Source: a virus. Taken from it: 40,350 bases of DNA. Position 1 is the first letter of the stretch. Each line of letters opens with the position of its first letter. The notes under the pieces are model-generated. The model saw only the letters and a list, made by a program, of their open reading frames with translations, had not been told where the DNA came from and made no database searches. Positions 21,297 to 40,350 of this stretch are shown here, piece by piece. Made by a program: the position numbers and the translations under genes. The stretch lies in IMG/VR virus record IMGVR_UViG_3300045988_141150. One strand, 5' to 3'.

Positions 21297-22403
21297 GTGA
21301 GAGGTTTTAAAACTAATGAACTTTGGTTATTTGAATATCTGGTTCGCTCGACACAAGATGAGTTAAGAGAATATGTTGCCGATGTATTGAAAGCTAAATA
21401 TACTGAAGTAGTTATTACTAAAGAGTATGTTTGTGCGGTTGGCGATATTCCTATTGCTTTAGTAGCTCATCTTGATACTGTGTTTGAGAAACCGGTCAAA
21501 GATTTATATTATGATACAAGAAAAAATGTGCTTTGGTCGCCCGATGGTCTTGGCGCAGATGATAGAGCAGGAGTATATGCGATTCTTCATATTTTGAGAA
21601 ATACATCTTTGCGTCCTTCTATTATTTTTACCACTGATGAAGAAATTGGTGGATTGGGCGCCGAAGCATTAGTATTACAATATTTTGAGTGTCCATTTCC
21701 CAATCTGAAATATATTATTCAGTTGGATAGACAAGGCACAAATGATTGTGTGTTTTATGACCTTTACAATCCTAAATTCATTGATTACATTGAATCTTTT
21801 GGATTTGTAGAGGATTTTGGCACGTTTAGTGATATTAGTGTTTTATGTCCTGAATGGAAAATTTGTGGCGTGAATCTTTCAGTAGGTTATAAAAATGAAC
21901 ATAACCGTATTGAAACATTAAATGCGGGTGCTCTTTTTGATACGATTAATAAGGTAATCCGCATGCTCAAAGAGAAAGATATTCCTAATTTTGAGTATTA
22001 TCGTAATTATCATAGTATTTGGTTCGATAATATTTGTAAGAATTTTCCAACTGATGGCGATGGATTCTACGTTCATTGTAGAGGATGCGGTCAGTTATTT
22101 AGTGAATATGAAACATTTCCAGTAAAGGGATTAGATGGACATACATGTTTTTATTGCCCTGATTGTATTCCCAGTAATGTTGAATGGTGTGCGGAGTGTG
22201 AAGAGGCATTTGAGATTGACCCTGCGAACCCACACAGCGAGTATTGTAAAGATTGTATTGGAGGATTAGTCAAATGTCATATGACTTCGACATCGAAAGC
22301 ATTAAAGAACAGTTCAACAAAGTCATCAGTTACTCCCAAGGAATCAGTAATCCAAAAACAGAAGAACTATTCGAAAGATTCCTCGAAGCCAAAAAAGACT
22401 TAA
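21297..22403 (+). CDS. M20/M28-like Zn metallopeptidase domain followed by a C-terminal zinc ribbon. The true 3' end is uncertain.
   Basis: The motifs HLDTV, DGLGADDRAGV and TTDEEIGGLGA are present, with CxxC pairs at the C-terminus. The last 130 nt overlap the next gene in another frame. Confidence 0.5.
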   Translation: MRGFKTNELWLFEYLVRSTQDELREYVADVLKAKYTEVVITKEYVCAVGDIPIALVAHLDTVFEKPVKDLYYDTRKNVLWSPDGLGADDRAGVYAILHILRNTSLRPSIIFTTDEEIGGLGAEALVLQYFECPFPNLKYIIQLDRQGTNDCVFYDLYNPKFIDYIESFGFVEDFGTFSDISVLCPEWKICGVNLSVGYKNEHNRIETLNAGALFDTINKVIRMLKEKDIPNFEYYRNYHSIWFDNICKNFPTDGDGFYVHCRGCGQLFSEYETFPVKGLDGHTCFYCPDCIPSNVEWCAECEEAFEIDPANPHSEYCKDCIGGLVKCHMTSTSKALKNSSTKSSVTPKESVIQKQKNYSKDSSKPKKT

Positions 22404-23704
22404 TTAAATTTTTTCACGGTCATTTAATTTATGAATGGCCGGAAAAGGTATCTTTTTCCTTAGATGATAAAACTAAAGAGCATCGTCTTGAAGAGTTTCT
22501 TGAAACAATTAATTATACTTATAATAATGAAGACTTAAAGGATTTTATTTCAGTAAATAAAGAAGGATTCTTTAACAATACAGTTATAGATACTTATTTC
22601 TATAAAGATAAAAAGATTCCAAGAGGAATGAAATTAGTTAAGGCTTTTAAGTATTTTGAAGAGAATCCACGCTCTTTGGAAGATATTCAGAATTACGCAA
22701 GTCGTATTATCCAAGAGGACAAGATTGAGGGAACATTATGTTTCTCAGTTCATCCTTTGGATTTTTTAAGCGTAAGTGAAAATACTTATAATTGGCGCTC
22801 TTGCCATGCACTTGACGGCGAATATAGAGCAGGAAATTTATCTTACATGGTAGATAAAAGCACTTTTATTTGTTATTTGCGCGGAGCAGAGAATCAGAAA
22901 CTTCCGCATTTCCCTGAAGATGTTCTTTGGAATTCTAAGAAATGGCGTATGCTTCTTTACATGGAAGATAAGCGACGTGGTTTAATGGCTGGTCGTCAAT
23001 ATCCTTTTATGACAACCAATGCTTTAATTAAAATTAAAGATATTATCAATACTTTTGATAAGACTTTTCAGTTGCGTGAATGGGTAGATGGAGGTATTAA
23101 TACTGTTTCTAATAGGATGAGCACTACTTCTTTTGATGAAGAAACTATTGGATTATCCGAGACATGGATTCCTATTTTATCTCGTTTATATCCTATTAGT
23201 GATATTGTTGAAGATATTGGCGAGCATACTCTTCAATATAATGATTTGCTTTATTCTTCTTGCTATTTACCCATTTATAGTTTAAAATTGTATTATTATC
23301 CATTAGAGACTGATCTTCCTCATTGGTCTATTGGTGGCGATGTCCCTTGTTTACAATGCGGTAAAACTATTATCGAAAGTGGAGAATATATGCGATGCGG
23401 AGACTGTGAATTCAATTATGGAGTAAACGAAGATGATAATTACGGTTATTGCGCTTGTTGCGGTTCTCGTATAATCCTTGATGAAGCAAATTCCGTAGGC
23501 GATGAGAATGAATTGGTTTGCGATAGTTGTGCAGATACTTATTGTAAACGATGCGAATGTTGTAATAATTTATATTATACAGAAGATATTCACTATCATA
23601 AAGGAACTGATATGTATTTATGTCCTTGGTGTTTTAGAGATGCTGATGAAGAAAAAGTTAATAATTTTAGGTCTTTAAAAGACTTTATACATAATTTTAG
23701 TTAA
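22274..23704 (+). CDS. Large protein with C-terminal zinc ribbons. It is a paralogue of the gene at 18141..19745.
   Basis: ATG at 22274 follows a GGAGGATTAGTC RBS, within track ORF 22253..23704. Confidence 0.6.
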   Translation: MSYDFDIESIKEQFNKVISYSQGISNPKTEELFERFLEAKKDLIKFFHGHLIYEWPEKVSFSLDDKTKEHRLEEFLETINYTYNNEDLKDFISVNKEGFFNNTVIDTYFYKDKKIPRGMKLVKAFKYFEENPRSLEDIQNYASRIIQEDKIEGTLCFSVHPLDFLSVSENTYNWRSCHALDGEYRAGNLSYMVDKSTFICYLRGAENQKLPHFPEDVLWNSKKWRMLLYMEDKRRGLMAGRQYPFMTTNALIKIKDIINTFDKTFQLREWVDGGINTVSNRMSTTSFDEETIGLSETWIPILSRLYPISDIVEDIGEHTLQYNDLLYSSCYLPIYSLKLYYYPLETDLPHWSIGGDVPCLQCGKTIIESGEYMRCGDCEFNYGVNEDDNYGYCACCGSRIILDEANSVGDENELVCDSCADTYCKRCECCNNLYYTEDIHYHKGTDMYLCPWCFRDADEEKVNNFRSLKDFIHNFS

Positions 23705-23716
23705 GGAGAATTAGAT

Positions 23717-24022
23717 ATGGCTAAAGGTACAGTAGCTAAGGAACAGATCGCCAAGAAAATGGCGGAAGTATTTGGCGCTGATTGGATCGGCGAGCGAGAT
23801 AAAAAGTATTATCTTTGGGCTAACGAGAATGGTGAGCGAATTCAAATTGCTATTAGTATGACATGCCCAAAGACTCCGGTTGGTGAAGCAGGTGCAACCA
23901 CGGATTCAAATGTTTTGAATTTTGAAGATGGGGCAACCGCAGGTGGAGAAACCCCGATTGAAATTACTACAGATGAAAAGAAAAATGTTGCTGATTTGAT
24001 GGCAAGATTAGGATTGAATTGA
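23717..24022 (+). CDS. Hypothetical protein of 101 aa.
   Basis: The ORF is in the track, with an AAGGAGAATTAGAT RBS. Confidence 0.55.
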   Translation: MAKGTVAKEQIAKKMAEVFGADWIGERDKKYYLWANENGERIQIAISMTCPKTPVGEAGATTDSNVLNFEDGATAGGETPIEITTDEKKNVADLMARLGLN

Positions 24023-24027
24023 TTTAA

Positions 24028-24062
24028 AGAGTAATGTCATTTGACATTACTCTTTTTTTTTG
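24028..24062 (+). terminator. Rho-independent terminator at the early/late boundary.
   Basis: Hairpin AGAGTAATGTCA-TT-TGACATTACTCT followed by a run of nine T. Confidence 0.75.
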
Positions 24063-24194
24063 TTATTATTTATTTAGTAAAAATGATAAATGGTTAGGTT
24101 TAACCGAAATTAAAAAATAAAATAAAATAAATTTTTAATAAAAATAGGATATATAGTATCCTAATTATTTATTTTATTAGGAGGAATTTTAATA

Positions 24195-24611
24195 ATGACT
24201 GAATTAAATAATACCTTTAAGGTAGTTGTTACTGACAATGAAGGCAAAGAGACTGAAAGTATTATAACTGGTCCTATTGTTTTTTCTACAAGTATTAATG
24301 GAGAAACTAGCGGAATTAAATATACTTTTAGACTTCGTGAATATTCAAAAGGCTATGATGTTGAAACTTTAAGTTTACCTAAAGTTTCTGCTCAGCTTAT
24401 TGGAAATTTTGATCGTTCAAAGGTTGCTAAAATTGGTGTATATTATTTAGCTGTTTCTAATGATTATAGAAAAGTTTTTGAAAAAAATGTTGCCAATATT
24501 GCTGAAATGGTATTCGAATATAATAATGATATTGGAGATAAGTCATATGCTAATAGTTATAACACTATAGCAGAGCTTAATATAACTTATACTCCCGAGG
24601 CTGTAAATTAA
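24195..24611 (+). CDS. Hypothetical protein of 138 aa, the first gene of the late block. It contains no TAG.
   Basis: The ORF is in the track, with a TAGGAGGAATTTT RBS. Confidence 0.55.
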   Translation: MTELNNTFKVVVTDNEGKETESIITGPIVFSTSINGETSGIKYTFRLREYSKGYDVETLSLPKVSAQLIGNFDRSKVAKIGVYYLAVSNDYRKVFEKNVANIAEMVFEYNNDIGDKSYANSYNTIAELNITYTPEAVN

Positions 24612-24624
24612 GGAGAGAATATAA

Positions 24625-25347
24625 ATGGCTGGTAGTCGTATTTCATGGAGCGATGTTCGCGCTCTATATGATACTTTAAATACTGCTTAGACTCGTTTTT
24701 CTCAATCTCGCACGGCTGCTCCCTCAAATGAGGGGCGTCGTACGAGAGAAAGTGACATTACTACTTTAAAAAATGAAATTGAAAATTTAAGAAATGTTTC
24801 TTATGTAGGAACTTAGGCTACTTTTTCTAATTTTACCGCTCCAAGAGCTAATGAACTTATGAAACGAGTCCCTTTAGAGGAAATTAGAAGTAAACTTGAT
24901 ACTATAAATGGCATTTGCGCCTATGATGGAGCGAATTATACAAGCAATAATGGTTATCGTGGTGCTAACTATACAAGTAATAATAGTCAACGTTCTTCTT
25001 ATTATTCAAGTAATGATGCTCAACGTTCTTCTTATTATTCAAGTAATAATGCTCAACGTGCTTCAGATTATTCAAGTAATAATGCTCAACGTTCTTCAGA
25101 TTATTCAAGTAATAATGCTCAACGTTCTTCAAATTATTCAAGTAACTATACTTATTATACTGCTAATTATTCAAGTAATAATGGTCATAGATCTGCTAAC
25201 TATAGTAGTAATAATGGTAATAGATCTTCTAACTATAGTAGTAATAATTCTCAACGTTCTTCAAATTATTCAAGTAATTATACTTATAGAAGTGCTTATG
25301 CTTCTAGAAGTTCAAATCGTAGTGGCGCTGGTAGAGTACGCTCTTAA
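24625..25347 (+). CDS. Repeat protein of 240 codons with two in-frame TAG. About 12 tandem 11-residue repeats of the form (A/S)xY(S/T)SNNxQRS follow a 100-residue N-terminal region. It is a candidate multi-core RiPP precursor.
   Basis: ATG follows an AAGGAGAGAAT RBS. The frame is continuous with track ORF 24859..25347 through TAG codons at 24688 and 24814. The underlying nucleotides form a 33-nt tandem repeat. Confidence 0.55.
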
Positions 25348-25378
25348 TTTTTTGAGAAAAAGGAGTTTTATAATATAA

Positions 25379-26878
25379 ATGTTTAAAGAAATGGATATTA
25401 GAGCAATATCTTTAGTTTCTTCATGTGGATGTAATTTACATTGTAAATATTGTCTTATTGAGAATACTTTAAATAATTGCTCTGCAAATTTACAACATGA
25501 AACTATTAAAGCTTTAAATGATGGTACTTTTTTAAATAATGTAAAAGGTATTTTTAAACGTTTAAATCTTGATAGATATAAAATAGAATGTTTTACTTTA
25601 TGGGGTCAAGAGCCTACATTGACATTACATCTTCTTACTGATCATTTGGAAGATTGGTTTAATTATTTCCCAAATATTAATCATATTGACTATTCTACTA
25701 ATGGGATGGATTTTCCTGAAAGAACTGTTAATTTTATTAAAAAGGTTGATGAATTAGCAAATAATGAACTTGCTTTAGAAGTTCAATTCTCTTATGATGG
25801 CACTTACTCAACCAATAATATTAGAAATGCTAATAATGAAAAAATCTTTGAGACTGCTTCAACTGTAATTAAAGAATTAAATAAAATTAAATTTCATAAT
25901 GTAAATGTATCTATTCAATTACATGGTGTTCTTTCTGGAGCTTTAATTCATGAACTTAATACAACTCAAAAAGTTCATGATTATTATAAAGATTTAGATA
26001 ATTTTGGATTTGAATTAGCTGATATTAATCTTAATTAGAGAGTTGAAGTAAATAGTAGTGTATCTATTTGCCCTGAGAATCCAAGAGATGGATCAGTTGA
26101 TGAACGTATTGAATATGAGTCTTTCTTACAACGCATTGTTAATATTGATGTAAGTGATTTTCATGACCCACATCTTCCAGTTAGTATTATTATTGGTTAT
26201 CGTCATCTTTATGAAGAAGTATTTTCTGATTTACATGGATTTACTGGAGAAGATCGTCCAATTACGCCCCAAGAATTAATGCGATTAGTTATGGAAGGAA
26301 ATCAAGAAGCAATTACTGTAGCTTCAAGAAATAATTTTTGTAGTGGTAATTTTAATGAATTAAAATTACTTTATGATGGTACTATGATGTCTTGTCAAAA
26401 CTTTATGTTTGATCTTGATGGTAATAATGTTAAAGATGATGGTACTATTGGAGCACAATTGAGAAAAGACACTCGTCGCACTAAAACTGATTGCATTAAT
26501 CTTTTAACTGATAGTGAAGAAGATATTAATAAAGTTATATATAAATATAATATGTATAAAACACATTCCTTCCCATTTATGTTTCAAGCAACTGTAAATA
26601 CTTTACAAATGCTTAATGAATGCAATCAATTAAATTCTATTTACAAGTATAATCCTGATAAATTATTAAGATTGGCATTAATTGCAACAAAAATTGATGC
26701 TTGTACTTATAATAATTTTATTTCTTCTGGTAGCGCGTTGTTAAGAAGTGTAGGCACTTTAAGAACTCAATCAGCACTATTTATGTATGTAGATAGAGAA
26801 AATAATTTACTTAAACCCGAAGAAGAATGGTTCCGAAATACTGAAAATATGAATGAATATAGAGGAGAAAGTAATTAA
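25379..26878 (+). CDS. Radical SAM enzyme of about 499 codons with one in-frame TAG at 26036.
   Basis: It carries CGCNLHCKYC, a CxxxCxxC motif. Track ORFs 25379..26038 and 26279..26878 are in the same frame, joined through a TAG with no TAA or TGA between them. Confidence 0.6.
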
Positions 26879-28281
26879 TGAATATTAGTGAAGGTTGTCA
26901 ATTAGATAATAATAAATATTTTGAAAAATTTATAGATAATTATATTTTTAATAGGGATCACCAAGAGGAAGGATACTGGATTAATGGAGAGTCTTTTGAG
27001 CTTATTATAAGACCCGAATGTAATCAACAATGTGAATATTGTTATGTTGCACGGTATGGAGATAAACTCTATCCGATGGAGAAACGCGCCGATAAGGAAA
27101 CTCTTGTTCATAATACAGATATTATTTTGAATTATATCTTTAAAGAAAGAAAAGTTTTATTTCATGAAATGGAACTTTTTGCTGGAGATTTATTTTATGA
27201 TGATATTGGATTTGAAATTCTCGAATTAATGTTTAAATATTATAAAGAATTATTTGATGAACATCCAAATATTTTTAATTTCCATCCTCGTATTGTAATT
27301 CCTAATAATTTTAGTTTTGCTATTGATGATAAAAAAGCTAAAAAAATGGAAGAGCTTTTAGCTAAATTTAAAACTATCAATATGGAAATAAGCCTTTCTT
27401 GTTCTATAGATGGACCTTATAATAGTGTGCGCGAGCGCGATAAAGATGATAGTTATTATACTAAAATTCTTGAATTCCTTCAAAGAAATCCTTGTGGTAT
27501 TCATCCTATGATTTCTCCAAGTAATATTGAGAGTGCTATTAAGAATTTTGATTGGTGGGACGAACAATATGAAAAGTATAATCTTGCTGGTGAAGACATT
27601 CATGATTTTCAACCTATGTATTTGGAAGTCCGCAATGATGAATGGACTGATGAGAAATTAGATCATTATCTTGAATTTTTAACTCATATGCTTGAAGTAA
27701 GATTTCATAAAAATGGTGAGTCTGTAGATAAATTGGCAAGACATATTTTCTTAGGAGATGGAAAAGAAGGTTCTTTACCTTGTCTTGGTAATTATGACCC
27801 TATTGGATTAACTTCTACTTGGAATAGTGAAGAATATACTTGCGCGATTTCGCATTAGACTTGTCTTTATGTGGCGAGTTTTGAATTTGCGCCTTGCCAT
27901 AGAACTTCTTATCCTCAGTTTCTTGGTGGACGTCTTGATGTAAAAGATGACAAAGTAGTTGGTATTACTGCAATTAATCCTACTGTGTATAGTGTAATTA
28001 AAACGAATAATACACATATGAATATTGGTTGTTTAACTTGTCCTTTTGATCCTTATTGTTTAAAAGGATGTTTAGGCGCTCAGTATGAAGCCACAGGTGA
28101 TTTATTTGTTCCCGGTGAAAGCGTTTGTAAATTACATAAAACACATTTAACTTTTTTAGTAAAGACTTATTGTGAGTTGGGATTAACTAAAATTGCAGTT
28201 GAAAAAAATTATTTTAAGAGTGAAGCAGATAAAGAAAAATGGCTTACTTTATGTCGTAAATTGGGGTATTATAATGATTGA
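26878..28281 (+). CDS. Radical SAM/SPASM-domain enzyme of about 467 codons with one in-frame TAG at 27856.
   Basis: It has an N-terminal CNQQCEYC radical SAM motif. Its C-terminal Cys cluster CLTCPFDPYCLKGCLG...VCKLH has the SPASM pattern. Track ORFs 26878..27858 and 27871..28281 are in the same frame. Confidence 0.6.
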
Positions 28282-28576
28282 AGAAATGAAAAGACAAATT
28301 CAACACTTAGATGATACTTTTGATCCTTCTAATGTTGGAGATTATAAAGATTTATTATATGTAATCTATTTAAATTGGATTGAAAATAATGGAGAAAACG
28401 AAGAAGTCAATTCTCTTATTAACAATTTAATTAAAAGAATTATTGATTCTAGCATTAATGATAATAATAATTGTGATAATTGTAATGAAGATGAAGATCC
28501 TAATATGAGTGAAGATTATTTAATTTATCGCCATTTCTTAGGATATAAAATTCCTGGCTATTGGCGTAATCATTAA
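28274..28576 (+). CDS. Small acidic protein of 100 aa. It could be an accessory protein or a precursor.
   Basis: ATG lies in the frame of track ORF 28193..28576 and overlaps the upstream TGA. Confidence 0.45.
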   Translation: MIEEMKRQIQHLDDTFDPSNVGDYKDLLYVIYLNWIENNGENEEVNSLINNLIKRIIDSSINDNNNCDNCNEDEDPNMSEDYLIYRHFLGYKIPGYWRNH

Positions 28577-29157
28577 TGTTAATTAATTTATATAATGCTC
28601 GTCAAACTTTATTAAGATCAGTAAAGTTTGACGAGCGTGAATGCGATGATATTGTTTTTGGATTAAATTTTCCAAAAGAAATTACTTTTTGCAAAATTGT
28701 AAATAATTCAAATGATATAGAATATTCTTCATTAAATTATCTATATAGTCAATTAAAAGATTTAGAATATAAAGATATAAAAATTATTGAATTAGTTTTT
28801 AATCAAAAACAAAAATTTACGTTTGAATCTACAGTAAAATCTATTTTTTATAGAACAATGTTATATTCAAGTTAGGGACAATTGGAATTTAAATTATATT
28901 TAACTTTACGATTTGAAGAAGAACATCCAATTATTTACGATAAAGAAGAATAGATTTTAAAGTGTGACAAAAATTGTAAACAGTTAAATAGAAAAATACA
29001 TCGTTGTGAATTTTTTCATAGTGATTTAAATGATATAAATGAAATTTGTACGGAATGTTTTTTGTAGGAAAGAGATAACCAAATAAAAGAATTGGTTAAT
29101 TATAATAGAGATATTATAAATGTTTTGGAGAATAAATATGGAAATAGATAGAACTAA
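28576..29157 (+). CDS. Hypothetical Cys-containing protein of about 193 codons with four in-frame TAG.
   Basis: It extends track ORF 28576..28875 through TAG codons to a TAA at about 29155. Confidence 0.4.
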
Positions 29158-31216
29158 AAATTATCAAGGGATTCCTCCTTATACTAATCCAATATGGAAA
29201 TCGGTTTATGATGGTGTTAGTTTAGAAATGCATATTGTAGATCATTGTAATCTTAATTGCGCAGGATGTAATCATTTTTCCCCTTTAGCAGAACCTTGGT
29301 ATATTGATTTAGATGATTTCCGTGATCAGATTACTTTTGCTTATAAAAAAATTCCAAATATAAAACTTTTTATGATTTTAGGTGGAGAACCTACTTTGCA
29401 TCCAAAATTATTTGAAATATGTTAGATTGCTAGAGAAGTTTTCCCAAAAAATAAAGTAGAAATTAAAATATTAAGCAATGGGTGTCATTTACAAGATGCT
29501 TTTAAACATGAGAAAGAATATCAAGATATGGGAGTAATATTTGATATTACTACTTATGGGAAATATACTGATCATAAAGCGGTAGAATATTTAGACAGTC
29601 ATGGTTTAGGTTTTAATCATAATTCAAGATTATTTATGCGACAATAGCTTGTAAATGAAGCAGGAACTACTGATATAAATGAAGTATATTTTCATAAATG
29701 CCCGCATTAGTTACCTTGTTTTACTTTAAAAAATTATAAAATTTATATATGTCCTTTTTCTGCACATTTGGATATTTATAGAAAAAAATATAATGTAAAT
29801 ATTCCAGAAGATGAAAGTGATTATTTGCGATTAGAGGATATAAATAATTTAGATGATTTACATAATTTTATTTTTAAGCCTAAAAATATTTGTAGATATT
29901 GCGATGGAACTATGTCTAAAGCCTCTTGGATTTGGCACAAATATTATGATACAAAATCGGAATTTATAGTTCCAATGGAAGATGCTTATTTTAGAGATTA
30001 TGATTTTTATTTAAAATTAGTTAATGATAAAGAAAATTTTTTAGAAAATTATTAGTTATTTAAAGAAAACAGATGCCCAATTGAATTTAGATATAATACT
30101 TATTATTTAAAAAAATGTTTTACTCGTTTTATTGATGGAAAAATGGATATTATAATACCTTATTATAATATGAATGATTAGCAAATTATTAATTTGTATA
30201 ATAATTTATCTACCCAAACAATTATAAAAGATTGTTGTGTATATTTTATTAGCGACCATTCTTTCTATGATAAAAAACTTATTGAGATATTTGATGAAGC
30301 GAGTTTTCCTTGTTTCTTTTTTAAGAATTTAAAACGAAAAGGACCAGGTCTAACTCGTAATTTAGGATTAGAATATTCTTTTAATAAATATGTGTTATTT
30401 TGGGATTCTGATGATTTATTCCCAAATGATAATGTTTTAGAAATTTTATATAATTCAATAAAACATAATGAGAAAGATTTTGGAGTATTTAAAATAGCTA
30501 ATACTGATAAATCAGTTGAAAAGATTAATTTAATTCTTAAAAGAGATTTTCTTAATAAAAATAATATAAAATATTCAAAATTTTTCTTTGGAGAAGACAG
30601 TATTTTCTTGGATAGATGTGATATTTATGGTGAATCTTATGAGTTAGAAGACTAGAATTTAGGTCTTTATATAACTTAGTTAGAAGACAATCCTAATTGT
30701 TTATCTCATTCTAATTCTAACATGGTAATTACAGCATATATTAATAAAATAATTGTATTTTTTGCTAATTTTATTGATGTTTTGAAATTAGAAAATATTG
30801 ATGAAAATCGTAAACAAAGTACTTTAAGACGGAATCTTTATAGAATTATTAATGAAATAAAATCAATAAGTGATTTAGATTCTTCTTTTTATGGATATGA
30901 AAATAATTATTTTTTAGAAAAAATTCTTCTTTTAATTTATTATATTTTATATACTATGTATAATTTATATAGTAACAAAGAAGATTTTAATAATATTCCC
31001 AATTTGTGTAATTTAGATAAACAAATTATAGAAGATATCAAAAGTTAGAAAATTAAATTTAGTCTTCTAAGAGGAGAATGTATAACTAATTTTGATGATA
31101 TTAAAAATGAAATTTATCCATTGTTAAATTATCTTAACAATGAATTATGCTATGTGCCTACTTATGAATGGTTTCTGAATTATTTAGATGGAAAAGGAGA
31201 GAGTATTTATGATTGA
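29138..31216 (+). CDS. Continuous 692-codon frame with 9 in-frame TAG and no TAA or TGA. It has an N-terminal radical SAM domain (CNLNCAGCNH, GGEPTLHP and a C-terminal CRYCDG) and a central GT2 glycosyltransferase domain (IIIPYYN...GPGLTRNLG...FWDSDD). It is one fusion protein or two to three cistrons.
   Basis: Track ORFs 29120..29425, 29768..30055, 30194..30655 and 30722..31048 all share one frame and are separated only by TAG. The frame ends at a TGA at 31214. Confidence 0.5.
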
Positions 31217-31391
31217 AACTTATCAAGAATATAAAGAAAAAGTTTATTTTCTTCTAAATAATTTTTTAGATTTTACTAAAGGAGATAAACCTTATTTATT
31301 TAATATGCCTTCAAAATTAGGCAATCTTCCTAATCTAAATGAATATTTATATTTTTGTTTTAATAAATCTGATGCAGGAGAAAATAAATGA
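31209..31391 (+). CDS. Small protein of 60 aa.
   Basis: ATG follows an AAAGGAGAGAG RBS, in the frame of track ORF 31188..31391. It ends in TGA. Confidence 0.45.
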   Translation: MIETYQEYKEKVYFLLNNFLDFTKGDKPYLFNMPSKLGNLPNLNEYLYFCFNKSDAGENK

Positions 31392-31930
31392 GGTTTACTG
31401 ATTATCATTTTGGATAGGCAGAGTCTGACTTTTGGACTTTATTAAAAGAATTTCTATTAAGGTTTGATCCCAATAGTATTTATGATTTTTGGATTTTATT
31501 TATTTATTTTTAGTTAGGTATTATTAGAAAAGATAGATTTATCATTTATTAGGTATAGTATATTTTAAAAGAAAAAATAGATTTTGAAGAAATTAATGAA
31601 GTAAATTTTAATACAATTATTCCAATAGAAAAGATAAATTTATCTAGTTTAAAAGATTGTATTTGGATAAGCTATTGGATTTGTTAGTATAATTATTAGA
31701 ATGATGAAAATTTAATTTTAATTTATAGTGAGAAAATATTTAATAATCTTACTAATATTTTTGAGCCGGATATTGTTATAGATATTCCAATAGTGTAGTA
31801 GAGTAATAAAATATGTAAAATGTGCGGTTTAGAGTCTAAATCTAATGGATAGAATATACCATTTTTTAAAATAAATGATAATAAATATTTATGTCCTAAT
31901 TGTTATTATTTATTAAAATTAAATGAATAA
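31388..31930 (+). CDS. Hypothetical protein of 180 codons with a C-terminal CxxC...CxxC zinc ribbon. It has about 10 in-frame TAG.
   Basis: ATG overlaps the upstream TGA. The frame is free of TAA and TGA for 543 nt in a region of about 25% GC. It is invisible to the standard-code track. Confidence 0.4.
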
Positions 31931-32023
31931 TTATTAAAACCTACTTTTATAGTAGGTTTTAATTGATTTTTAATAAAAAATAATGTATTATAATTATAAG
32001 ATAAATGAAAAGGGTGTGTTTAT

Positions 32024-33808
32024 GTGAATAATTATAATCAACATTATAAAGAAATAAGTCCTATTGAGACTGTTAATAATATTAAAAATTTTTTAGAAGG
32101 ACGCGGATTTACTTGTGTTGAGGAAGCTTTACGACAAGAACAATCAACTACTTGGAGTCTTGTATTAAATCTTGAATACAAAGGACATTTTGTGCTAAAA
32201 ACTTATGGCAAAGGTGTTACAAAAGAATTCGCCAGAGCTTCTGGTTATGCGGAAATGTATGAGCGTTTTTGTAATGGAATGCACTATCTTTGTAATTCTT
32301 TTCTTTGTGCGGAAAAAATTGAATTAAATAGAAAAAATTATGGTTATTCTTTGTTTAAAAATGAAAAGCCTTTAAGTTATAAAGAGGCACTTGGAGGAGA
32401 AGATACTCTTTTATATAAACTTTTTGATCGTTTGAATAAGAAAGATAATGGTTTATTAGAGGATTATTTTAAAACTATTTATAATAATGAATTTTTTGGA
32501 ATACCATTTAAAGGAGTCAACATTAATAAAACTTTATATATGGATCCTCGTCTTCTTCAACGTTATCATGGTAGTTCGGGAATGGCAGCCGGCAATACTT
32601 TTAATGAAGCCTTAAATCAAGGTTTATCTGAAATTTTCGAGCATTATGTTTTAAGTAATTTTTATATTGATATTGATAATAAAGATTTTTATTTTTATGA
32701 TACAGATAGTATTAAAGATGAAAAATTAAAAAATATTATTAGTGCGATTAAATCTCATAATAATAACTTTTATATTATTGATATGTCAAGAACTTATAAT
32801 GTGCCTGTTATGGTAGCAATTTTGATTAATAAATATAGTGGTACTGTAGCTATTAATTTTGGTGCTTTCCCTGTATTTGAAATTGCAGTTGAGCGAGTTT
32901 GTACTGAAATGTATCAAAATTGTTTTTCTTTTGATACAAGAAAAACTTCAGTTGTATCTCCGTATTATTCTTTAGATAAAGAAGATATGGTTATAGATGG
33001 CGGTTCTTGTATTACAAATCTTAATACTTTTCCTGAGAGTTTATTCTTGAATAAGAAATTTGTAAATACTATTAATAAAGATGTATTTTTATCTTATACT
33101 GATAAAAATTACTCTAATGATGAAATCTTAGAGCATAATAAAAAGATTGCTACTAATATTGGAGCAGATATTTATTGTGCTGATGTATCTTTAATTGATA
33201 CCGTATCTGCGATTAGTATTTATGTTGATAATCTTGACGGGCTATGGAAATCTTTCTTTGATAGATGCCAAGGAGTTAAAGAAACTGGAGAAGCAATTAC
33301 TATAACTAAAAATAAACATTTGGCCATTAAAAACTATTTAAATAATAAAGATAAAGTATATGATGTAATTAAATATTGTCTTGATTATTATAATATTACT
33401 TTTGACAAAATTGTAGATAGATTTTGTGGTTTACTTACTCATGGAGATCAATTAGTTGCTTATAATAATAAAAATATATTATTAACACCTAATGAGATGT
33501 TTGTTAAAAACCTTTATATGGATGCAACAGGATATTTATTAGAAGATGAAGGATTTTCTTTAGATATTTCAGTTAGTTGTTTTTATACTTATTATAAAAA
33601 ATATTTAACTTTATTAGCATATGTTCACAGTAGAAAATATACTAAAGAAGATATGATTAAAATTTTCAAAGAATTTGATTATACTTTTACTGATGAAGAT
33701 TTTAAACATATTACGGATAGAAAATATTTAGTAGAAAAATGTATTTTAGAGCCTATGTATAATACATTTAGAAGCAATGATTTTAAAGAAATGATTAAAA
33801 ATTATTAA
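32024..33808 (+). CDS. YcaO-domain protein of 594 aa.
   Basis: HGSSGMAAGNTFNEALNQGLSEIFEHY matches the YcaO ATP-binding signature, which has the form xGSNGLAsGNTxxEAxxQGLxExxER. The ORF is in the track and has no TAG. Confidence 0.65.
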   Translation: MNNYNQHYKEISPIETVNNIKNFLEGRGFTCVEEALRQEQSTTWSLVLNLEYKGHFVLKTYGKGVTKEFARASGYAEMYERFCNGMHYLCNSFLCAEKIELNRKNYGYSLFKNEKPLSYKEALGGEDTLLYKLFDRLNKKDNGLLEDYFKTIYNNEFFGIPFKGVNINKTLYMDPRLLQRYHGSSGMAAGNTFNEALNQGLSEIFEHYVLSNFYIDIDNKDFYFYDTDSIKDEKLKNIISAIKSHNNNFYIIDMSRTYNVPVMVAILINKYSGTVAINFGAFPVFEIAVERVCTEMYQNCFSFDTRKTSVVSPYYSLDKEDMVIDGGSCITNLNTFPESLFLNKKFVNTINKDVFLSYTDKNYSNDEILEHNKKIATNIGADIYCADVSLIDTVSAISIYVDNLDGLWKSFFDRCQGVKETGEAITITKNKHLAIKNYLNNKDKVYDVIKYCLDYYNITFDKIVDRFCGLLTHGDQLVAYNNKNILLTPNEMFVKNLYMDATGYLLEDEGFSLDISVSCFYTYYKKYLTLLAYVHSRKYTKEDMIKIFKEFDYTFTDEDFKHITDRKYLVEKCILEPMYNTFRSNDFKEMIKNY

Positions 33809-33819
33809 TAGGAGATTAT

Positions 33820-34698
33820 ATGAATATTAATTTTAATTGCCCTGAATTTTACTATGGGATTGAAGTATATGATAAACTTTTTGAATTACAAGAAATTGCT
33901 CCAGAAGCATTTTATCCAGAAGCCAAGGTAAAGTATATATATGGCTGTCTTCCTAATATGATTTGGAATGGTGGCGGATTTATGGATGGACGTCCAGAGC
34001 ATAATATTGATTATCTTTGCGCAATGCGTGATTTTTATGAAAAAAATAATATTATTTTACGTTTTACATTGACAAATCCGCTTTTAGAAGAAACTGACGT
34101 TTATGATAGATACTGTAATGAAATGTTAAAACTTTTTGATAATGGTATTAATGAAATTATTGTTAATTCTCCTATTCTTGAGCGCTATCTTCGAGACAAA
34201 TTTCCTAATTATAAGTTGACTAAAAGTATTACGGCAGCAAAAGAAGATTATGATTTTGTAAAAGCTCTTGATAATTATGAAAGCATTGTCCTTCCTCGTC
34301 GTCACAATAGAAATTGGGAACTTCTTGATTCTATTCCAAAAGATAAAAGAGAGAAAATTGAAATTCTTGCTGATGAAAGTTGTCCTATTGATTGTCCTCG
34401 TCTTTATACTCATTACAATGTTTTTGCAAATTTTAGTTTGTTTAAAAAAATTGATGACTCTCAGCGTAATTGTACTACTATGAAAAATAATGGCGCAGTT
34501 TTTCCTGAAATTGATAATAAAGATATGATTTATATGGATGAAATTTTAAATACTTATTTACCAAAAGGATATAATAATTTTAAGATTTCTGGGCGCAATT
34601 GCGCTGACCATTGTGCAAAATCTATTACTCCGTATTTTTTTAAACCAGAATATCAATTAGAAGGTTTTTGCGAGTTGCTCGATATTGGTTTGAGTTGA
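33820..34698 (+). CDS. Hypothetical protein of 292 aa, possibly a partner of the YcaO protein.
   Basis: The ORF is in the track. It begins 12 nt after the YcaO stop and has several Cys pairs. Confidence 0.5.
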   Translation: MNINFNCPEFYYGIEVYDKLFELQEIAPEAFYPEAKVKYIYGCLPNMIWNGGGFMDGRPEHNIDYLCAMRDFYEKNNIILRFTLTNPLLEETDVYDRYCNEMLKLFDNGINEIIVNSPILERYLRDKFPNYKLTKSITAAKEDYDFVKALDNYESIVLPRRHNRNWELLDSIPKDKREKIEILADESCPIDCPRLYTHYNVFANFSLFKKIDDSQRNCTTMKNNGAVFPEIDNKDMIYMDEILNTYLPKGYNNFKISGRNCADHCAKSITPYFFKPEYQLEGFCELLDIGLS

Positions 34699-36809: not shown

Positions 36810-38128
36810 CTTCTTCGATTCCTTCTTCTTCTTCTTTAAGAACGGGGGATATATTAAATTGTCCTTATAGTGGATCTGCTAAATCAATTACTCTTCCAAA
36901 AGGCACTTATAAATTAGAATGTTGGGGAGCACAAGGTGGAAATGCAGGTTATTATAGTTATGTTCATTCAACCCCTAATGGAGGAAAAGGTGGATACTCT
37001 ACTGGTGTAATCACTTTATCTTCAAGTGTTATAGTATATCTTTATACCGGAGGACAAGGAGGAAGTACTATCGGGAATAAGCTAGACTAGAATTCAGTAG
37101 CTACAGCACCTGGTGGATTTAATGGAGGTGGCATCGCTAATCAAATGGGAGCCGCTGGTGGTGGTGGAGCTTCTGATATTCGCATAGGCCAAGATTCTCT
37201 CTATGCTCGTATAATCGTCGCTGGAGGCGGTGGTGGTGGAGGCAATGCGAGTAGTTCTACTTTATTATCTTGTGGCGGAAATGGTGGAGGAACTACTGGT
37301 GGAACTCCACCTAATTAGCACAATAATAGAACCCCAGGAAAAGGAGGAACTCAAACTGGAATAACAGCTAGTCGTTCATCATCAATTTCTGCGGGATTTG
37401 GTAATGGAGCTGGTGGTACGGGAGAAAATCTTCGTGGAGCCGGTGGCGGTGGCTGGTATGGTGGAACTATGGGTGAAAATTCAACTGGCGGAGGTGGAGG
37501 TTCTGGTTATGTATATACTTCCTCAACTGCTTCTAATTATCCATCTGGTTGCTTATTGAATAGCACTCATTATCTTAGTTCTGCTTCTACAATAGCTGGC
37601 GACACTTCATTCACTTCTCCAACAGGGTCATCTGAAACAGGTCATAGCGGAAACGGGTATATAAGAATTACTATTTAGTCTATTGTTAACTGGGCTTATT
37701 CTACTGTATCAATTCCTGCTCCTACTTATAGTAAATAGGATACTTCTTCTTGGACTTTATCTCCGAGTGCTTGCAGGTATTTTTCTTTTACCCCTACTAT
37801 TTCAGGAGATTTTATTGTTTATTCCAATTCTTCAATAGATACTTTTGGCTATTTAACATCAAATATTGTTTCTCTTAATAGTAGTGGATAGCCTTCTTCT
37901 AATATTTTAGCTAGTGATGATGATTAGGCAAAAAAATATGGTGGATCTGGAAGTAATTTTGGTATTTGTTATAAAGTTACTGCTGGAACTACTTATTATA
38001 TATATGTTAAGCCTTATCGTGATAGTACAGCAAATAGTTCAGTATATTTAACTTATTATATGGCTCATCCTGACAGTAGAGTATATGTAAAAACAGATAG
38101 TACAACATGGAAATTAATAACCAATTAA
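36791..38128 (+). CDS. Glycine-rich tail-fibre-like protein of 445 codons with about 8 in-frame TAG. It is a paralogue of the gene at 35394..36809.
   Basis: It shares LPKGTYKLECWGAQGG, SDIRIGQDSLYARIIVAGGGGGG and SGYVYTSSTASNYPSGCLLNS...GNGYIRITI with the upstream gene. It ends at a TAA at 38126. Confidence 0.55.
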
Positions 38129-38136
38129 AAAATTTT

Positions 38137-38165
38137 TTGACATTTTAAAAAAAATAATATATAAT
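38137..38165 (+). promoter_or_regulatory. Family-A promoter: TTGACA, a 17-nt spacer, TATAAT.
   Basis: It matches the motif. It drives the tRNA-Trp region. Confidence 0.6.
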
Positions 38166-38299
38166 ATATTTATAAAATAAAGAAAGACCTTTACAGCAAA
38201 AATAACTTCCAGAATAAACTAATGATTAAGTCATAATCCTTTAAGATTAAAATAATGGTTCAACTCCATTTTCCGGACAAAGTTAAGGTCTTGTTTTTA

Positions 38300-38374
38300 T
38301 AGGCGTCTGGTGTAACGGTAGCATGCGGGTCTCCAAAACCTTGCGGTGTGGGTTCGAATCCTACGACGCCTGCC
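38300..38374 (+). tRNA. tRNA-Trp with anticodon CCA.
   Basis: Acceptor stem AGGCGTC pairs with GACGCCT over 7 bp. The T arm is GTGGG-TTCGAAT-CCTAC. The anticodon loop is CTCCAAA. The discriminator is G and CCA is encoded. Confidence 0.7.
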
Positions 38375-38396
38375 ATTTTAGACAAAAAGAACTTTT

Positions 38397-38425
38397 TTGA
38401 TTTTATTAAAAATATATAATATAAT
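38397..38425 (+). promoter_or_regulatory. Family-A promoter.
   Basis: TTGATT, a 17-nt spacer, TATAAT. Confidence 0.6.
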
Positions 38426-38459
38426 ATATATAGAAAGTTGAGAAAGGAGAAAATAAATA

Positions 38460-38642
38460 ATGAATATTGAAGTTGGTAATTCTTATTGTTTTGTCCCTTA
38501 TCGTGGTCGTTGTTATCGTAGACAGTATCTTAAATGTACTGTTATTCGAGTATTAAATTATCAGATTGAAGTCCTTGATGAGCATGGTGAAAAATGGCTT
38601 CTTTCAGAAGATGATTTAATGCCAATTCAAAGACCTTATTGA
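38460..38642 (+). CDS. Small hypothetical protein of 60 aa.
   Basis: The ORF is in the track, with an AAAGGAGAAAAT RBS, and sits between two promoter copies. Confidence 0.45.
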   Translation: MNIEVGNSYCFVPYRGRCYRRQYLKCTVIRVLNYQIEVLDEHGEKWLLSEDDLMPIQRPY

Positions 38643-38667
38643 CATTTTATAAAAAATATTATATAAT
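38639..38667 (+). promoter_or_regulatory. Family-A promoter: TTGACA, a 17-nt spacer, TATAAT.
   Basis: It matches the motif. Confidence 0.6.
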
Positions 38668-38726
38668 ATTTATATAAGATGAGGAAAGAAAAAAGAAAAT
38701 AAAAAACTTTGGGTAAAAGAGAAAAG

Positions 38727-38755
38727 TTGATTTTTTAAAAAAAATATAATATAAT
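38727..38755 (+). promoter_or_regulatory. Family-A promoter: TTGATT, a 17-nt spacer, TATAAT.
   Basis: It matches the motif. It drives the interrupted tRNA. Confidence 0.6.
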
Positions 38756-38794
38756 AAATATATAAAGTAAGGATTTTAAAAGTCCTTCTTTTAT

Positions 38795-39342
38795 GGGAGT
38801 GTAGCTCAGTTGGTTAGAGCACGCGGCTGTTTACTTGACCTTATCATTTTCTTATAAAAAAATGAAATGAATAGTAAACAAAAAGGTAATATTACCGAGC
38901 TTGAAACAATGTTAGCATTTATGAAACTTGGTTATAATGTTCTTACTCCTTACGGAGATTGTGAGCGTTATGATTTTGTGGTTGATGTAAATGGTAAATT
39001 TATTAGAATTCAAGCTAAAACATCGCGAACCGAAGATGAAGGAGCTTCTTTTATTTTTTCTGGTAGAAGTTGCCATAGAAAAGATGGAAGAATAGTTCAT
39101 CATCAATATACTAACGAAGAAATTGATTACTTCGTAACTACTTTTAATGGAAAATGTTATTTGATTCCAGTGGAAGAGTGCGGAGCAGATAAAAGACTTC
39201 GTATTCTTCCACCTAAAAACAATCAAGTAAGAGGTATTACTTGGGCGAAAGATTATGAGTTGGAGGAAGTAGTAAGAAAATGGTAAGCTGATGTGTAAGC
39301 AACCGCGGTTTGTCGTGAGTTCGAGTCTCTCCTCTCCCGCCA
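38795..39342 (+). tRNA. Interrupted tRNA gene, tRNA-Asp-like with an inferred anticodon GUC. The 5' half is 38795..38830 and the 3' half is 39300..39342. A 469-bp insertion in the anticodon loop separates them.
   Basis: The 5' half reads GGGAGTG-TA-GCTCAGTTGGTTAGAGC-A-CGCGG-CTGT. The 3' half reads CAA-CCGCG-GTTTGTC-GTGAG-TTCGAGT-CTCTC-CTCTCCC-G-CCA. The anticodon stem CGCGG pairs with CCGCG perfectly. The acceptor stem pairs 6 of 7. The D loop resembles tRNA-Asp. Confidence 0.55.
38867..39286 (+). CDS. PD-(D/E)xK nuclease of 139 aa encoded inside the tRNA insertion. It resembles Hjc and I-Ssp6803I and is a candidate homing endonuclease.
   Basis: The ORF is in the track. The motifs ELETML (E), GDCERYDFVVDV (D) and IRIQAKTS (Q/E-x-K) occur in the order and spacing of the Hjc / I-Ssp6803I fold. 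Confidence 0.55.
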   Translation: MNSKQKGNITELETMLAFMKLGYNVLTPYGDCERYDFVVDVNGKFIRIQAKTSRTEDEGASFIFSGRSCHRKDGRIVHHQYTNEEIDYFVTTFNGKCYLIPVEECGADKRLRILPPKNNQVRGITWAKDYELEEVVRKW

Positions 39343-39582
39343 TTGGGGCGTTAACACGGATTTTGTAAGTTTAAACTACCACCGATCGAAAGAGTATGTG
39401 GCTTGCGGAAAACGCCCGACTAAATATAAGGAAGCGAAGTAAAACTTATTGTGAAATAGTAGCTATACTCACATTAATCAAGGCTATGGGTTCTGGGAAT
39501 CCAAAAGAGTAAAAGTTGGTTCGAGTCCTAACGATTGACGAAGTTCGAATCTTCGCGATGTGGGTTATAAAACTCTTTATTT
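39343..39582 (+). ncRNA. Structured non-coding region with tRNA-like fragments of uncertain nature.
   Basis: It contains the long-range helix GGGGCGTT...AACGCCC at 39346 and 39411. It also holds two T-arm-like motifs, GTTGG-TTCGAGT-CCTAAC and CGAAG-TTCGAAT-CTTCG, but I cannot fold a complete canonical tRNA. Confidence 0.3.
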
Positions 39583-39659
39583 GCTGGTGTAGCCGAATTG
39601 GCATAGGCGAATGATTTAGGATCATTAATCTGAAGGTTCGAGTCCTTTCTCCAGCACCA
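39583..39659 (+). tRNA. Class-I tRNA with a short variable loop and anticodon UAG. The anticodon would read CUN codons as Leu, but amino-acid identity is uncertain.
   Basis: The acceptor stem GCTGGTG pairs with CTCCAGC 6 of 7. The anticodon arm is AATGA-TTTAGGA-TCATT. The T arm is GAAGG-TTCGAGT-CCTTT. The discriminator is A, CCA is encoded, and the variable loop is 5 nt. Confidence 0.6.
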
Positions 39660-39746
39660 GTCCCTCCCTGGGAATGCGTTGAAGGCTTGCGAACTTTGAA
39701 CGCAGGTGGTTGGCAACTCCATCTATACATAAATAAGTTGCGTTTT

Positions 39747-39825
39747 GGGCTTCGGGACTGCATGGCGTGGTCGTCTGTCTTGCACACAGAAAATCAGGTG
39801 AGTTCGATTCTCACGAGGTCCACCA
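39747..39825 (+). tRNA. tRNA-Ala with anticodon UGC.
   Basis: The acceptor stem is GGGCTTC with GAGGTCC and includes a G3:U70 pair. The anticodon arm is TCTGT-CTTGCAC-ACAGA. The T arm is GTGAG-TTCGATT-CTCAC. CCA is encoded. Confidence 0.6.
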
Positions 39826-40225
39826 TTATATGGTTATATGGTGTAAAGAGTAAGCACGGCGGTTAAATAAACCGCAAATTTAGGAGCATTGCCTAATATA
39901 ACCGATTATATGATTGGTGATAAAAGCAGCCAGAAATATTATCTTATTAATTAAAACTTAATACAATATACTAAACGATATAATAGATAAGGTATATTAA
40001 TAAAATTTATATACAATAAGATAATATATACAAAATGCTAATAGTGATTTTGGTTCCAGCGCTAGGAAAGTTTTTCCCACTACGAAGAGAAAATTTGAAG
40101 AGTTAGCGTAGTCTTGATAATTATGTCTTAAATAATTATCCCTTTTTGGCTCATAACCTTTTTTTGGATAAAAAATTATATTATATTTACCGTGATGCCG
40201 CGGAGGGACGGCCGCCCTAAAGTGC

Positions 40226-40350
40226 GATTAAGATTAGAAAGAAGTTGGAAGATCTTCTTAAAACTTCCATTAGATTAGAAAGAAGTTGGAAGATCTTCTT
40301 AAAACTTCCATTAGATTAGAAAGAAGTTGGAAGATCTTCTTAAAACTTCC
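40226..40350. repeat. 41-bp direct tandem repeat, ATTAGATTAGAAAGAAGTTGGAAGATCTTCTTAAAACTTCC, present in at least three copies and running off the window end.
   Basis: Copies sit at 40226, 40269 and 40310. Each unit contains the nested inverted repeats GAAGTT..AACTTC and GAAGATCTTC. Confidence 0.8.

Follow-up and report, generated by a model that had tools for sequence, protein, structure and literature searches.

Can a tRNA gene that carries a homing-endonuclease gene in its anticodon loop still yield a tRNA, or has the tRNA been given up to the invader? The question is posed by a stretch of viral DNA of 40,350 nucleotides (nt), IMG/VR record IMGVR_UViG_3300045988_141150, hereafter the window (position 1 being its first letter), in which a tRNA gene at 38795..39342 is split by an insert that holds the open reading frame (ORF) of a nuclease. 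Here, we compared this locus with its relatives in other phages. The comparison of alleles and contigs gives good support to a model where the insert is a ribozyme-free homing-endonuclease cassette, placed between nucleotides 36 and 37 of phage tRNA genes and mobile at the DNA level. An earlier note on this DNA, made from the letters alone, had offered two readings, a non-canonical intron or an invaded and inactivated tRNA gene, and these remain the two live explanations.

The split gene is a tRNA-Asn

Run with intron search, ARAGORN reproduced the arrangement of the earlier note, a tRNA at 38795..39342 split by a 469-nt insertion, as its sole such call in the 40-kb window; in default mode the program reported 5 tRNAs in the window, the split gene at 38795..39342 not among them. 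The layout of the locus is as follows.

38795..38831, + strand: tRNA-Asn exon 1, comprising the acceptor 5' strand, the D arm and the anticodon stem 5' strand (ARAGORN; junction from uninterrupted alleles)
38822-38826, + strand, in exon 1: anticodon stem 5' strand, followed by C32 and U33 (38827-38828) and the anticodon GUU (38829-38831)
38832..39300, + strand: 469-nt insert (TAC...AAGC), an intron-like mobile element (ARAGORN and uninterrupted alleles)
38867..39286, + strand: homing-endonuclease ORF, 139 amino acids (aa), PF11645 / I-Ssp6803I family (complete ORF, Pfam and structure match)
39301..39342, + strand: tRNA-Asn exon 2, comprising A37 and A38, the anticodon stem 3' strand (39303-39307), a 7-nt variable loop, the T arm, the acceptor 3' strand, G73 and CCA

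The gene had been described as tRNA-Asp-like. Judged from its alleles, it is a tRNA-Asn(GUU) with the insert between T36 and A37. Uninterrupted alleles read ...GGCTGTTAACC... (tRNA-Asn GTT). The closest isolate, Enterococcus phage EFP01 (KY549443), carries a homologous 463-nt insert whose ORF is 58% identical to that of the window; in ~30 sister Schiekvirus genomes the same gene is uninterrupted, annotated as tRNA-Asn(GTT) and reads ...ACTGGCTGTTAACCAGT..., a sequence with which the EFP01 exons are 100% identical and which leaves T36/A37 as the sole consistent insertion point. Pattern scans found the exon junction of the window uninterrupted as the Asn form in 13 viral contigs and as the Asp form in 0, and the exons joined from 38831 to 39301 are called tRNA-Asn(gtt) by ARAGORN. 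Moreover, the intact tRNA-Asp genes on carrier contigs have a different D stem (GUUC/GUUU) and a CUGUCAC loop, and the intact tRNA-Asn genes there resemble the split ones. An Asp (GUC) identity with a CUGU...CAA junction (35/36) is therefore ruled out by the empty alleles and the pattern scans. The splice positions first proposed, CUGU and then CAA, were off by one base, the real junction being CUGUU followed by AA. The insert thus runs from TAC to AAGC; with a final base other than G, what looked like a group I signature (U(-1) and terminal G) is gone. No DNA allele with the joined exon sequence of the window, GGCTGTTAACCGCGGTTTGTCGTGAG, occurs in IMG/VR; the uninterrupted-site DNA ...CGCGGCTGTTAACCGCG... 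was taken as the candidate homing target. Split genes of this kind are overlooked by default tRNA finders, and intron search misnames many of them, giving Asp, Leu or Phe for Asn, Gln, Lys or Ile.

The insert encodes a nuclease of the I-Ssp6803I family

The insertion does contain the complete 139-aa ORF seen before, and its assignment to PD-(D/E)xK nucleases of the I-Ssp6803I type withstood profile and structure searches. Along its whole length the product matches Pfam PF11645 (PDDEXK_5; E=1.4e-31), among solved structures its best relative is I-Ssp6803I (2OST, E=2.7e-10), and the D..QxK residues D36, Q49 and K51, like E11, do not vary across 13 diverse homologues. By these matches it is a full-length I-Ssp6803I-family (PF11645) homing endonuclease. 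From the filled/empty polymorphism and the co-conversion tract described below, the nuclease presumably makes a site-specific double-strand cut in empty tRNA alleles.

A family of inserts in phage tRNA genes

A protein search returned 660 clusters at E<=1e-5, and ~120 related loci (L numbers below) were fetched from viral contigs, human-gut and rumen metagenomes and two metagenome-assembled genomes. Nearly all of their ORFs lie inside a tRNA anticodon loop, in inserts of ~460-485 nt, and a junction between 36 and 37 gives a natural anticodon loop in every case. Related elements are, by the origin of these contigs, widespread in gut, rumen and Enterococcus phages, and occupy the following tRNAs.

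Asn GUU: joined loop CUGUUAA, 68 loci
Ile GAU: joined loop CUGAUAA or CUGAUAC, 16 loci
Gln UUG: joined loop CUUUGAC, 5 loci
Lys UUU: joined loop CUUUUAA, 2 loci
Thr UGU: joined loop UUUGUAA, 2 loci

A few further loci have a UUA anticodon after joining. The discriminator bases fit the identities, G in Asn and Gln, A in Ile and Lys. Such recurrence also disposes of an assembly artefact, that is, a chimeric contig joining two tRNA fragments around an unrelated gene: nothing speaks for it beyond the window being unannotated sequence, and the same arrangement in more than 100 independent contigs from different studies, as well as in the finished genome of the isolated phage EFP01, refutes it and reduces its probability to next to nothing. 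Short ORF-carrying contigs (500-570 nt), considered as possibly circular or transcript-like, are plain genomic fragments.

Distant PF11645 proteins (30-35% identity) come from free-standing genes that have intact tRNA genes on either side; those of Kuttervirus PM10 and of the haloarchaeal virus HSTV-4 are found directly downstream of tRNA-Asn(GTT). As read from these gene neighbourhoods, PF11645 is a family of tRNA-gene-targeting homing endonucleases, one clade of which, that of the window, has moved into the target site itself.

Two well-formed tRNAs of the related loci have ORF-less anticodon-loop insertions of 44-45 nt, at L034 3122-3242 (likewise L035 1889-2009 and L143 4219-4339) and at L011 2569-2690. 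These tRNAs are a Thr UGU (Rfam tRNA 51.8 bits) and a Gln CUG or possibly CUA suppressor (47 bits). Each short insertion resembles a mini-tRNA: it has a 7-bp stem and a T-arm-like hairpin, and a single unpaired base stands before CCA. Cuts at the stem's 5' end and directly behind CCA would leave a 7-nt loop in both, with the anticodons UAU and CUA. They stand on the same contigs as the family element, one of the two can be read as a 36/37 insertion, and they count as a precedent on the side of splicing.

Mobility at the DNA level

The site is filled in EFP01, 1 of ~33 genomes, and empty in the ~30 Schiekvirus genomes with exons identical to its own. The Gln type offers a second filled/empty pair: the empty allele L143, from a gut phage, reads CTTTGAC uninterrupted, and its flanks are near-identical to those of the filled L034. 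L034 and L143 differ only in one base beside the anticodon stem and in that stem itself (CGGGA/TCCCG against TATGA/TCATA); elsewhere the tRNAs are identical, as are 150/150 downstream bases; on this alignment, the exchange of the anticodon stem is the co-conversion tract expected of homing. The window and L003, when compared with L004, have inserts 97-99% identical in tRNA-Asn bodies 74-78% identical, with flanks 98-100% identical. In L004 (1429-1974) the stems are all paired even though about a quarter of the exon positions differ from window 38795-39342, a difference that could stem from long co-conversion tracts from different donors or from the exchange of exon patches. A comparison of flank, insert and exon divergence, made for vertical inheritance, is uninformative owing to the high background identity of the AT-rich flanks. 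The earlier note would have taken intact uninterrupted copies of the same tRNA in related genomes as the mark of a pseudogene; such copies exist, yet they do not show a pseudogene, since empty sites are a property of any mobile intron as well.

None of the translated ORFs had a frameshift or a premature TAA or TGA stop. The ORFs of L022 and L031 have in-frame stops at two shared positions, of which the one checked at the DNA level is TAG, and related contigs carry tRNA(CUA) genes (L006 3157-3247, L008 2641-2731); TAG is probably a sense codon for the phages with L022 and L031, which make up part of this phage group. These two could be read as broken ORFs with intact exons, and hence as evidence of splicing, a reading rejected given the two shared positions and the probable sense meaning of TAG.

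Two observations concern the tRNA-Asn locus of Schiekvirus. In Enterococcus phage vB_OCPT_Bop (L039 804-1487) a second, unrelated homing-endonuclease gene of the HNH type, hegA, lies ~200 nt downstream of the same tRNA-Asn, where it replaces a tRNA-Gln present in other Schiekvirus, so that the locus is a hotspot for endonuclease genes. In EFP01, the region of the last ~23 nt of the insert, TGAAACGATATTATGGCTGATG (L001 2900-2925), resembles its own 5' exon, TGAAACGGTATCATGACTGGCTG (L001 2441-2465), at ~19/23 bases; the exon stretch concerned is part of the D arm and anticodon stem, and the window has no clear equivalent.

No sign of a ribozyme

The part of the insert outside the ORF had been judged far too small for a group I core, and every approach agreed with this: Rfam matches, non-coding length and synonymous variation. 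Rfam covariance models for introns of group I and of group II gave no match in the whole window, of which 38100-40350 was searched to E<=10 and returned only ordinary tRNAs; nor was there a group I or II match in 20 related loci. The non-coding part of the insert is 49 nt only, 35 before the ORF and 14 after it. Within the coding part, a comparison of 28 distinct 139-codon ORFs shows synonymous differences throughout the gene (smoothed fraction 0.17-0.48), with a drop at the first ~6 and last ~12 codons (128-139) and two mild internal dips. As synonymous sites vary along the ORF, no catalytic core of 150-200 nt is hidden there.

The ends of the inserts point the same way. The last insert base is C in the Asn and Ile types and A in the Gln, Lys and Thr types, while the base before the 5' junction is G in the Gln type. 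Internal-loop motifs (YUGAC opposite CUGAUGU) are restricted to the Asn and Lys types, and their absence from Ile, Gln and Thr leaves no common catalytic core. Thus, neither a P3-P9 core, nor a U as last exon base with a G as last intron base, nor ~180 nt or more of structured RNA, all of them expected of a group I intron, is found; and in place of the domain V/VI and reverse-transcriptase ORF of a group II intron there is no Rfam match and a 139-aa nuclease ORF. Hammerhead and hairpin readings of the insert were inspected by eye and rejected, the required elements being missing.

A self-splicing intron would then have to rely on an unrecognised ribozyme, either very small or embedded in the ORF, such as a degenerate group I core that overlaps the coding sequence or a new small ribozyme made of the stem with its internal loop. 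This idea draws on the 655-nt group I intron in which I-Ssp6803I, the closest characterised relative, resides, on the ability of divergent tRNA group I introns to escape RF00028 (PMC13011429), and on the conserved CUGA and UGAUG motifs of the Asn/Lys-type internal loop. Against these stand the lack of any covariance-model match at E<=10 in the window and the 20 related loci, the missing terminal G together with the G before the 5' junction of the Gln type, the 49 non-coding nt beside an ORF whose synonymous sites vary everywhere but at its ends, and the lack of the loop motifs in three of the types. We consider a ribozyme very improbable.

A conserved RNA structure spans the junctions

The ends of the insert were thought to pair and to extend the anticodon stem. 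This pairing is real and reaches further than supposed, as the elements below indicate.

38828..38834, + strand: 5' strand of the outer helix, made up of U33, the anticodon G34-U36 and the first 3 nt of the insert (UAC) (covariation, folding)
38835..38839, + strand: internal loop 5' side, UUGAC (YUGAC motif, conserved in Asn/Lys types)
38840..38855, + strand: inner helix 5' strand, CUUAUCAUUUUCUUAU, which is the 5' untranslated region (UTR) of the ORF (folding)
39272..39287, + strand: inner helix 3' strand, GUAAGAAAAUGGUAAG, over the last ORF codons and the stop codon (folding; synonymous variation low in codons 128-139)
39288..39294, + strand: internal loop 3' side, CUGAUGU (conserved in Asn/Lys types)
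39295..39301, + strand: outer helix 3' strand, GUA, then AGC (the partner of the anticodon), then A37 (covariation, folding)

The plan is the same in every type. U33 pairs with A37, and the anticodon pairs with the last three insert bases, continuing the anticodon stem; insert bases 1-3 (up to 8) find their partners in the bases immediately before the last three; an internal loop follows, and then an inner helix of 12-16 bp between the 5' UTR and the last codons and stop. Both the minimum-free-energy and the centroid fold of the 548-nt pre-tRNA keep this two-helix structure (z=-6.7). Across 69 distinct junctions, pairing occupies 90.3% of the cells of the outer helix and falls to 35-45% once the 3' partners are shifted by 1-3 columns, and 7/9 pairs change on both sides (one of them as AU:32, UG:12, UA:10, CG:6, GC:6), with a covariation score reached by 0/500 shuffles. 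The frequent G.U pairs imply that the constraint acts on the + strand RNA, not on DNA. In particular, the last three insert bases track the anticodon of the host tRNA: AGC with GUU, AUC with GAU, CAA with UUG, AAA or AGA with UUU, and AUA with UGU. The inner duplex has a mean of -14.6 kcal/mol in 73 distinct inserts, compared with -9.0 for shuffles.

The two junctions lie within one helix, staggered by three base pairs, a geometry that would leave 3' overhangs. Being continuous and without bulges, the helix is not a bulge-helix-bulge motif; an intron of that class, with its two 3-nt bulges and 4-bp helix, was accordingly rejected, the junctions lying in a continuous covarying helix instead. 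A kink-turn or box C-D-like motif in the internal loop, which calls for a 3-nt bulge and then tandem sheared G.A pairs, was also dismissed by eye: the Asn and Lys types have CUGA opposite UGAUG with a 1x2 loop in place of the bulge, and the Ile, Gln and Thr types lack the motif.

Spliced intron or dead tRNA?

We lean, at somewhat short of an even chance, toward a true tRNA intron that is spliced by enzymes and spares the tRNA it invades; the enzyme that cuts, the chemistry of the ends and the ligation are what we infer. The nuclease would cut uninterrupted tRNA genes at the anticodon, and repair from a genome that carries the cassette would copy it in, at times with a few flanking exon bases. 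Once transcribed, the pre-tRNA would keep its cloverleaf while the insert closes on itself and continues the anticodon stem, bringing both junctions opposite each other in one helix. This helix would be the splicing substrate: a protein endonuclease, be it the nuclease that the intron encodes or an RNase of the host or of a phage, would cut both junctions, and an RNA ligase, RtcB (encoded by EFP01) or one of the Rnl type being candidates, would rejoin the anticodon loop. The helix is flush at the junction, includes the anticodon and is re-tuned in five host tRNAs, so that it looks like an element that defines splice sites, beyond the needs of a stem for mRNA processing. It is possible, if more tentatively, that these are protein-removed introns whose nuclease could serve as both homing and splicing endonuclease, a phage or host ligase closing the loop. 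The terminal helix may re-create in RNA the anticodon stem and triplet duplex that the nuclease recognises in DNA. I-Ssp6803I reportedly makes its two DNA cuts to the left and right of the anticodon, with 3-nt 3' overhangs as the outcome, a result that goes back to Bonocora and Shub in 2001; the two RNA junctions are staggered in this same way.

In archaea and animals, tRNA splicing uses RtcB as its ligase. A full-length RtcB (PF01139, E=1.8e-59) is encoded by the Schiekvirus phage Bop and, at 99% identity, by EFP01 as well, and RtcB is common in large phages (691 records). No Rnl-type ligase was seen near RtcB among 20 Schiekvirus proteins scanned, in a search that was not exhaustive. As for the cutting step, the DREN domain of SPARDA, named as a DNA and RNA effector nuclease, is structurally similar to I-Ssp6803I tetramers (PMC12205087), which makes RNA cleavage by this fold conceivable.

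The exons are mostly sound. Among 75 distinct split tRNAs, 47 have no stem mismatch and 20 have one, and U8, the D-loop GG and the T loop are conserved. Split and uninterrupted tRNA-Asn sets, retrieved independently of the quality of acceptor, D and T arms, are free of mismatches in 32/42 (76%) and 14/18 (78%) cases, respectively.

Several points weigh against splicing. Some exons look suspicious: C33 occurs in L008 and L052, the anticodon GCU in L054, part of the D arm is duplicated in L011, and the stems of L069, L063 and L064 are defective; the window gene itself has two U.U mismatches, at 6:67 and 50:64, and a 7-nt variable loop (GUUUGUC). Homing is recent and frequent, so that sound exons may reflect either selection or youth and do not tell the two apart. 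All Schiekvirus genomes have RtcB and 1/~33 has the insert, which makes tRNA repair a simpler reason for the ligase; RtcB was not found in the window or the fetched flanks, and no tie to the gut carrier contigs was recognised by eye among 80 listed of more than 600 matches. A metal-dependent PD-(D/E)XK cut would leave 5'-P and 3'-OH ends, which RtcB does not join and which need an Rnl-type ligase. We know of no bacterial or phage endonuclease able to cleave the two strands of a perfectly paired RNA helix at sites staggered by 3 nt. The distant relatives of the nuclease, free-standing beside intact tRNAs, imply that the family needs no splicing, and a scan of gaps up to ~60 nt revealed no ORF-less derivative of the element.

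Conversely, the cassette could be a selfish, unspliced insertion and the tRNA dead, the homing-endonuclease gene sitting in its own target site and so shielding the carrier genome from cutting; we regard this as nearly as likely as splicing, though clearly below an even chance, and the behaviour of the element is that of an ordinary selfish gene. Phage tRNAs are dispensable, so that homing would outweigh the cost, and the stem would serve the nuclease gene, through RNase III-type processing from the transcript of the tRNA cluster, protection of the mRNA end or hold-back of translation. The lack of both a ribozyme and a known bacterial splicing enzyme for such a helix fits this explanation, as do the free-standing relatives, often beside tRNA-Asn, the position of the inner helix across the 5' UTR just upstream of the start codon, and the presence of the element in so few Schiekvirus genomes, the phage being viable either way. 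With turnover this recent, selection is not required to explain intact exons, and several carriers have damaged exons, as has the window gene with its two stem mismatches. What an unspliced insertion accounts for less readily is the form of the helix, since a processing or stabilising stem would have little evident reason to start flush at the junction or to pair with the anticodon, yet the last three insert bases are re-tuned to the anticodon in five host tRNAs. Split exons are no more degraded than uninterrupted tRNA-Asn genes, and among ~120 loci there is no frameshifted, truncated or decayed copy, of which a cycle of hit and decay should leave some.

Neighbouring features

Two promoter-like sites, consensus matches only, precede the split gene.

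38639..38667, + strand: promoter-like site TTGACA-17-TATAAT, 12/12, upstream of the split gene
38727..38755, + strand: another promoter-like site, TTGATT-17-TATAAT, 10/12, which precedes the tRNA by 40 nt

Nearby, at 38208-38278, there is a tRNA-like gene with a 6-nt anticodon loop, which ARAGORN calls 'tRNA-??? (tt)' and which scores 37.5 bits with the Rfam tRNA model. The 240-nt spacer 39343-39582 between the split tRNA-Asn and a tRNA-Leu contains the T-arm-like motifs GGTTCGAGTCC and AGTTCGAATCT and two overlapping degenerate tRNAs, seen by ARAGORN at lowered thresholds only; the motifs are probably tRNA remnants. A conserved RNA in this spacer was considered and rejected, as the 98-99% conservation among sister contigs does not extend to relatives farther off.

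Farther away, window 21297-34698, and especially 25000-34000, is very AT-rich (GC 0.20-0.30) and encodes a YcaO cyclodehydratase (32024-33808, E=5e-28) along with two radical-SAM-like and further peptidase-like proteins, so that the block looks like a RiPP-like peptide-modification cluster in a phage. The ORF map of the window is broken up into pieces: 66 ORFs reach 90 aa or more, and many of these overlap. Among the related loci, EFP01 has a ROOL RNA (L001 3430-4016, 264.8 bits) ~460 nt downstream of its split tRNA-Asn, a second ROOL RNA lies in a gut phage locus (L026 3111-3423), and a phage-encoded tmRNA (L025 1003-1425) stands just upstream of a split tRNA-Ile.

Significance

A review of 2014 placed every phage intron observed until then in a protein-coding gene, even though phage tRNA genes are numerous (PMC3984707). 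In our literature search every bacterial tRNA intron described was a ribozyme, and no paper turned up on ribozyme-free endonuclease insertions or introns in phage tRNA genes. The nuclease family and the kind of target are thus known; what is new is the absence of a ribozyme and a conserved RNA architecture of its own, in a large and actively mobile family that interrupts phage tRNA genes of five or more species. If spliced, these would be the first protein-spliced, ribozyme-free tRNA introns in bacterial viruses, removed by an archaeal/eukaryal-style cut-and-ligate pathway; they would bear on the origin of protein-dependent introns from mobile elements and suggest a splicing role for phage RtcB. 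If unspliced, they would be a clear case of a homing-endonuclease gene that spreads by destroying dispensable genes, and counts of phage tRNAs, with what is drawn from them on codon adaptation, host range and stop-codon recoding, would be systematically wrong.

Comparison with known systems

The I-Ssp6803I intron in the tRNA-fMet gene of Synechocystis PCC 6803 shares with the window element the PF11645 nuclease, the anticodon loop of a tRNA as target and mobility by homing. That intron is 655 nt long, of which a 150-aa ORF leaves ~200 nt for the ribozyme, and it lies at 33/34 (PMC13011429); the window element, in contrast, has 469 nt and no ribozyme, lies at 36/37, is borne by a phage and has a terminal stem paired with the anticodon. 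The group I introns of bacterial tRNA genes, surveyed in 2026, are self-splicing, 184-894 nt long, with U(-1) and a terminal G, and those with endonuclease genes encode the HNH type and all exceed 500 nt (PMC13011429). The common ground is the host tRNA, Asn GUU, and an anticodon mis-called by standard tools, which results from a junction ambiguous by one or two bases; self-splicing, U(-1), terminal G and HNH are all lacking in the window element.

Archaeal bulge-helix-bulge introns, including carriers of homing endonucleases, likewise combine a basal stem with an ORF, lack a ribozyme and pair the anticodon with the insert. In archaea and animals RtcB joins the exons after a protein cut, and the fold of the splicing endonuclease is derived from PD-(D/E)XK (PMC3424549). 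Yet the window element has no 3-nt bulges but a continuous helix, lies at 36/37 rather than 37/38, and has bacterial hosts (Enterococcus for EFP01). To our knowledge, bacteria have neither EndA nor another known tRNA-splicing endonuclease.

Bacterial 23S rRNA intervening sequences, which are excised by RNase III and not religated, resemble the element in having an extended helix in the loop of a structural RNA, sometimes with an ORF, and no ribozyme. Fragmented rRNA works, whereas a tRNA cut in its anticodon loop does not, and this model therefore implies a dead tRNA; under the same explanation the stem may also be likened to the regulatory hairpins of other phage homing-endonuclease genes. 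Finally, the free-standing PF11645 genes in phage tRNA clusters (Kuttervirus PM10, HSTV-4, Pectobacterium phage My1, and Vibrio and Synechococcus phages) belong to the same family and are equally associated with tRNAs, but they lie between genes and leave the tRNA intact, whereas the window gene is lodged inside the anticodon loop, within a bipartite stem.

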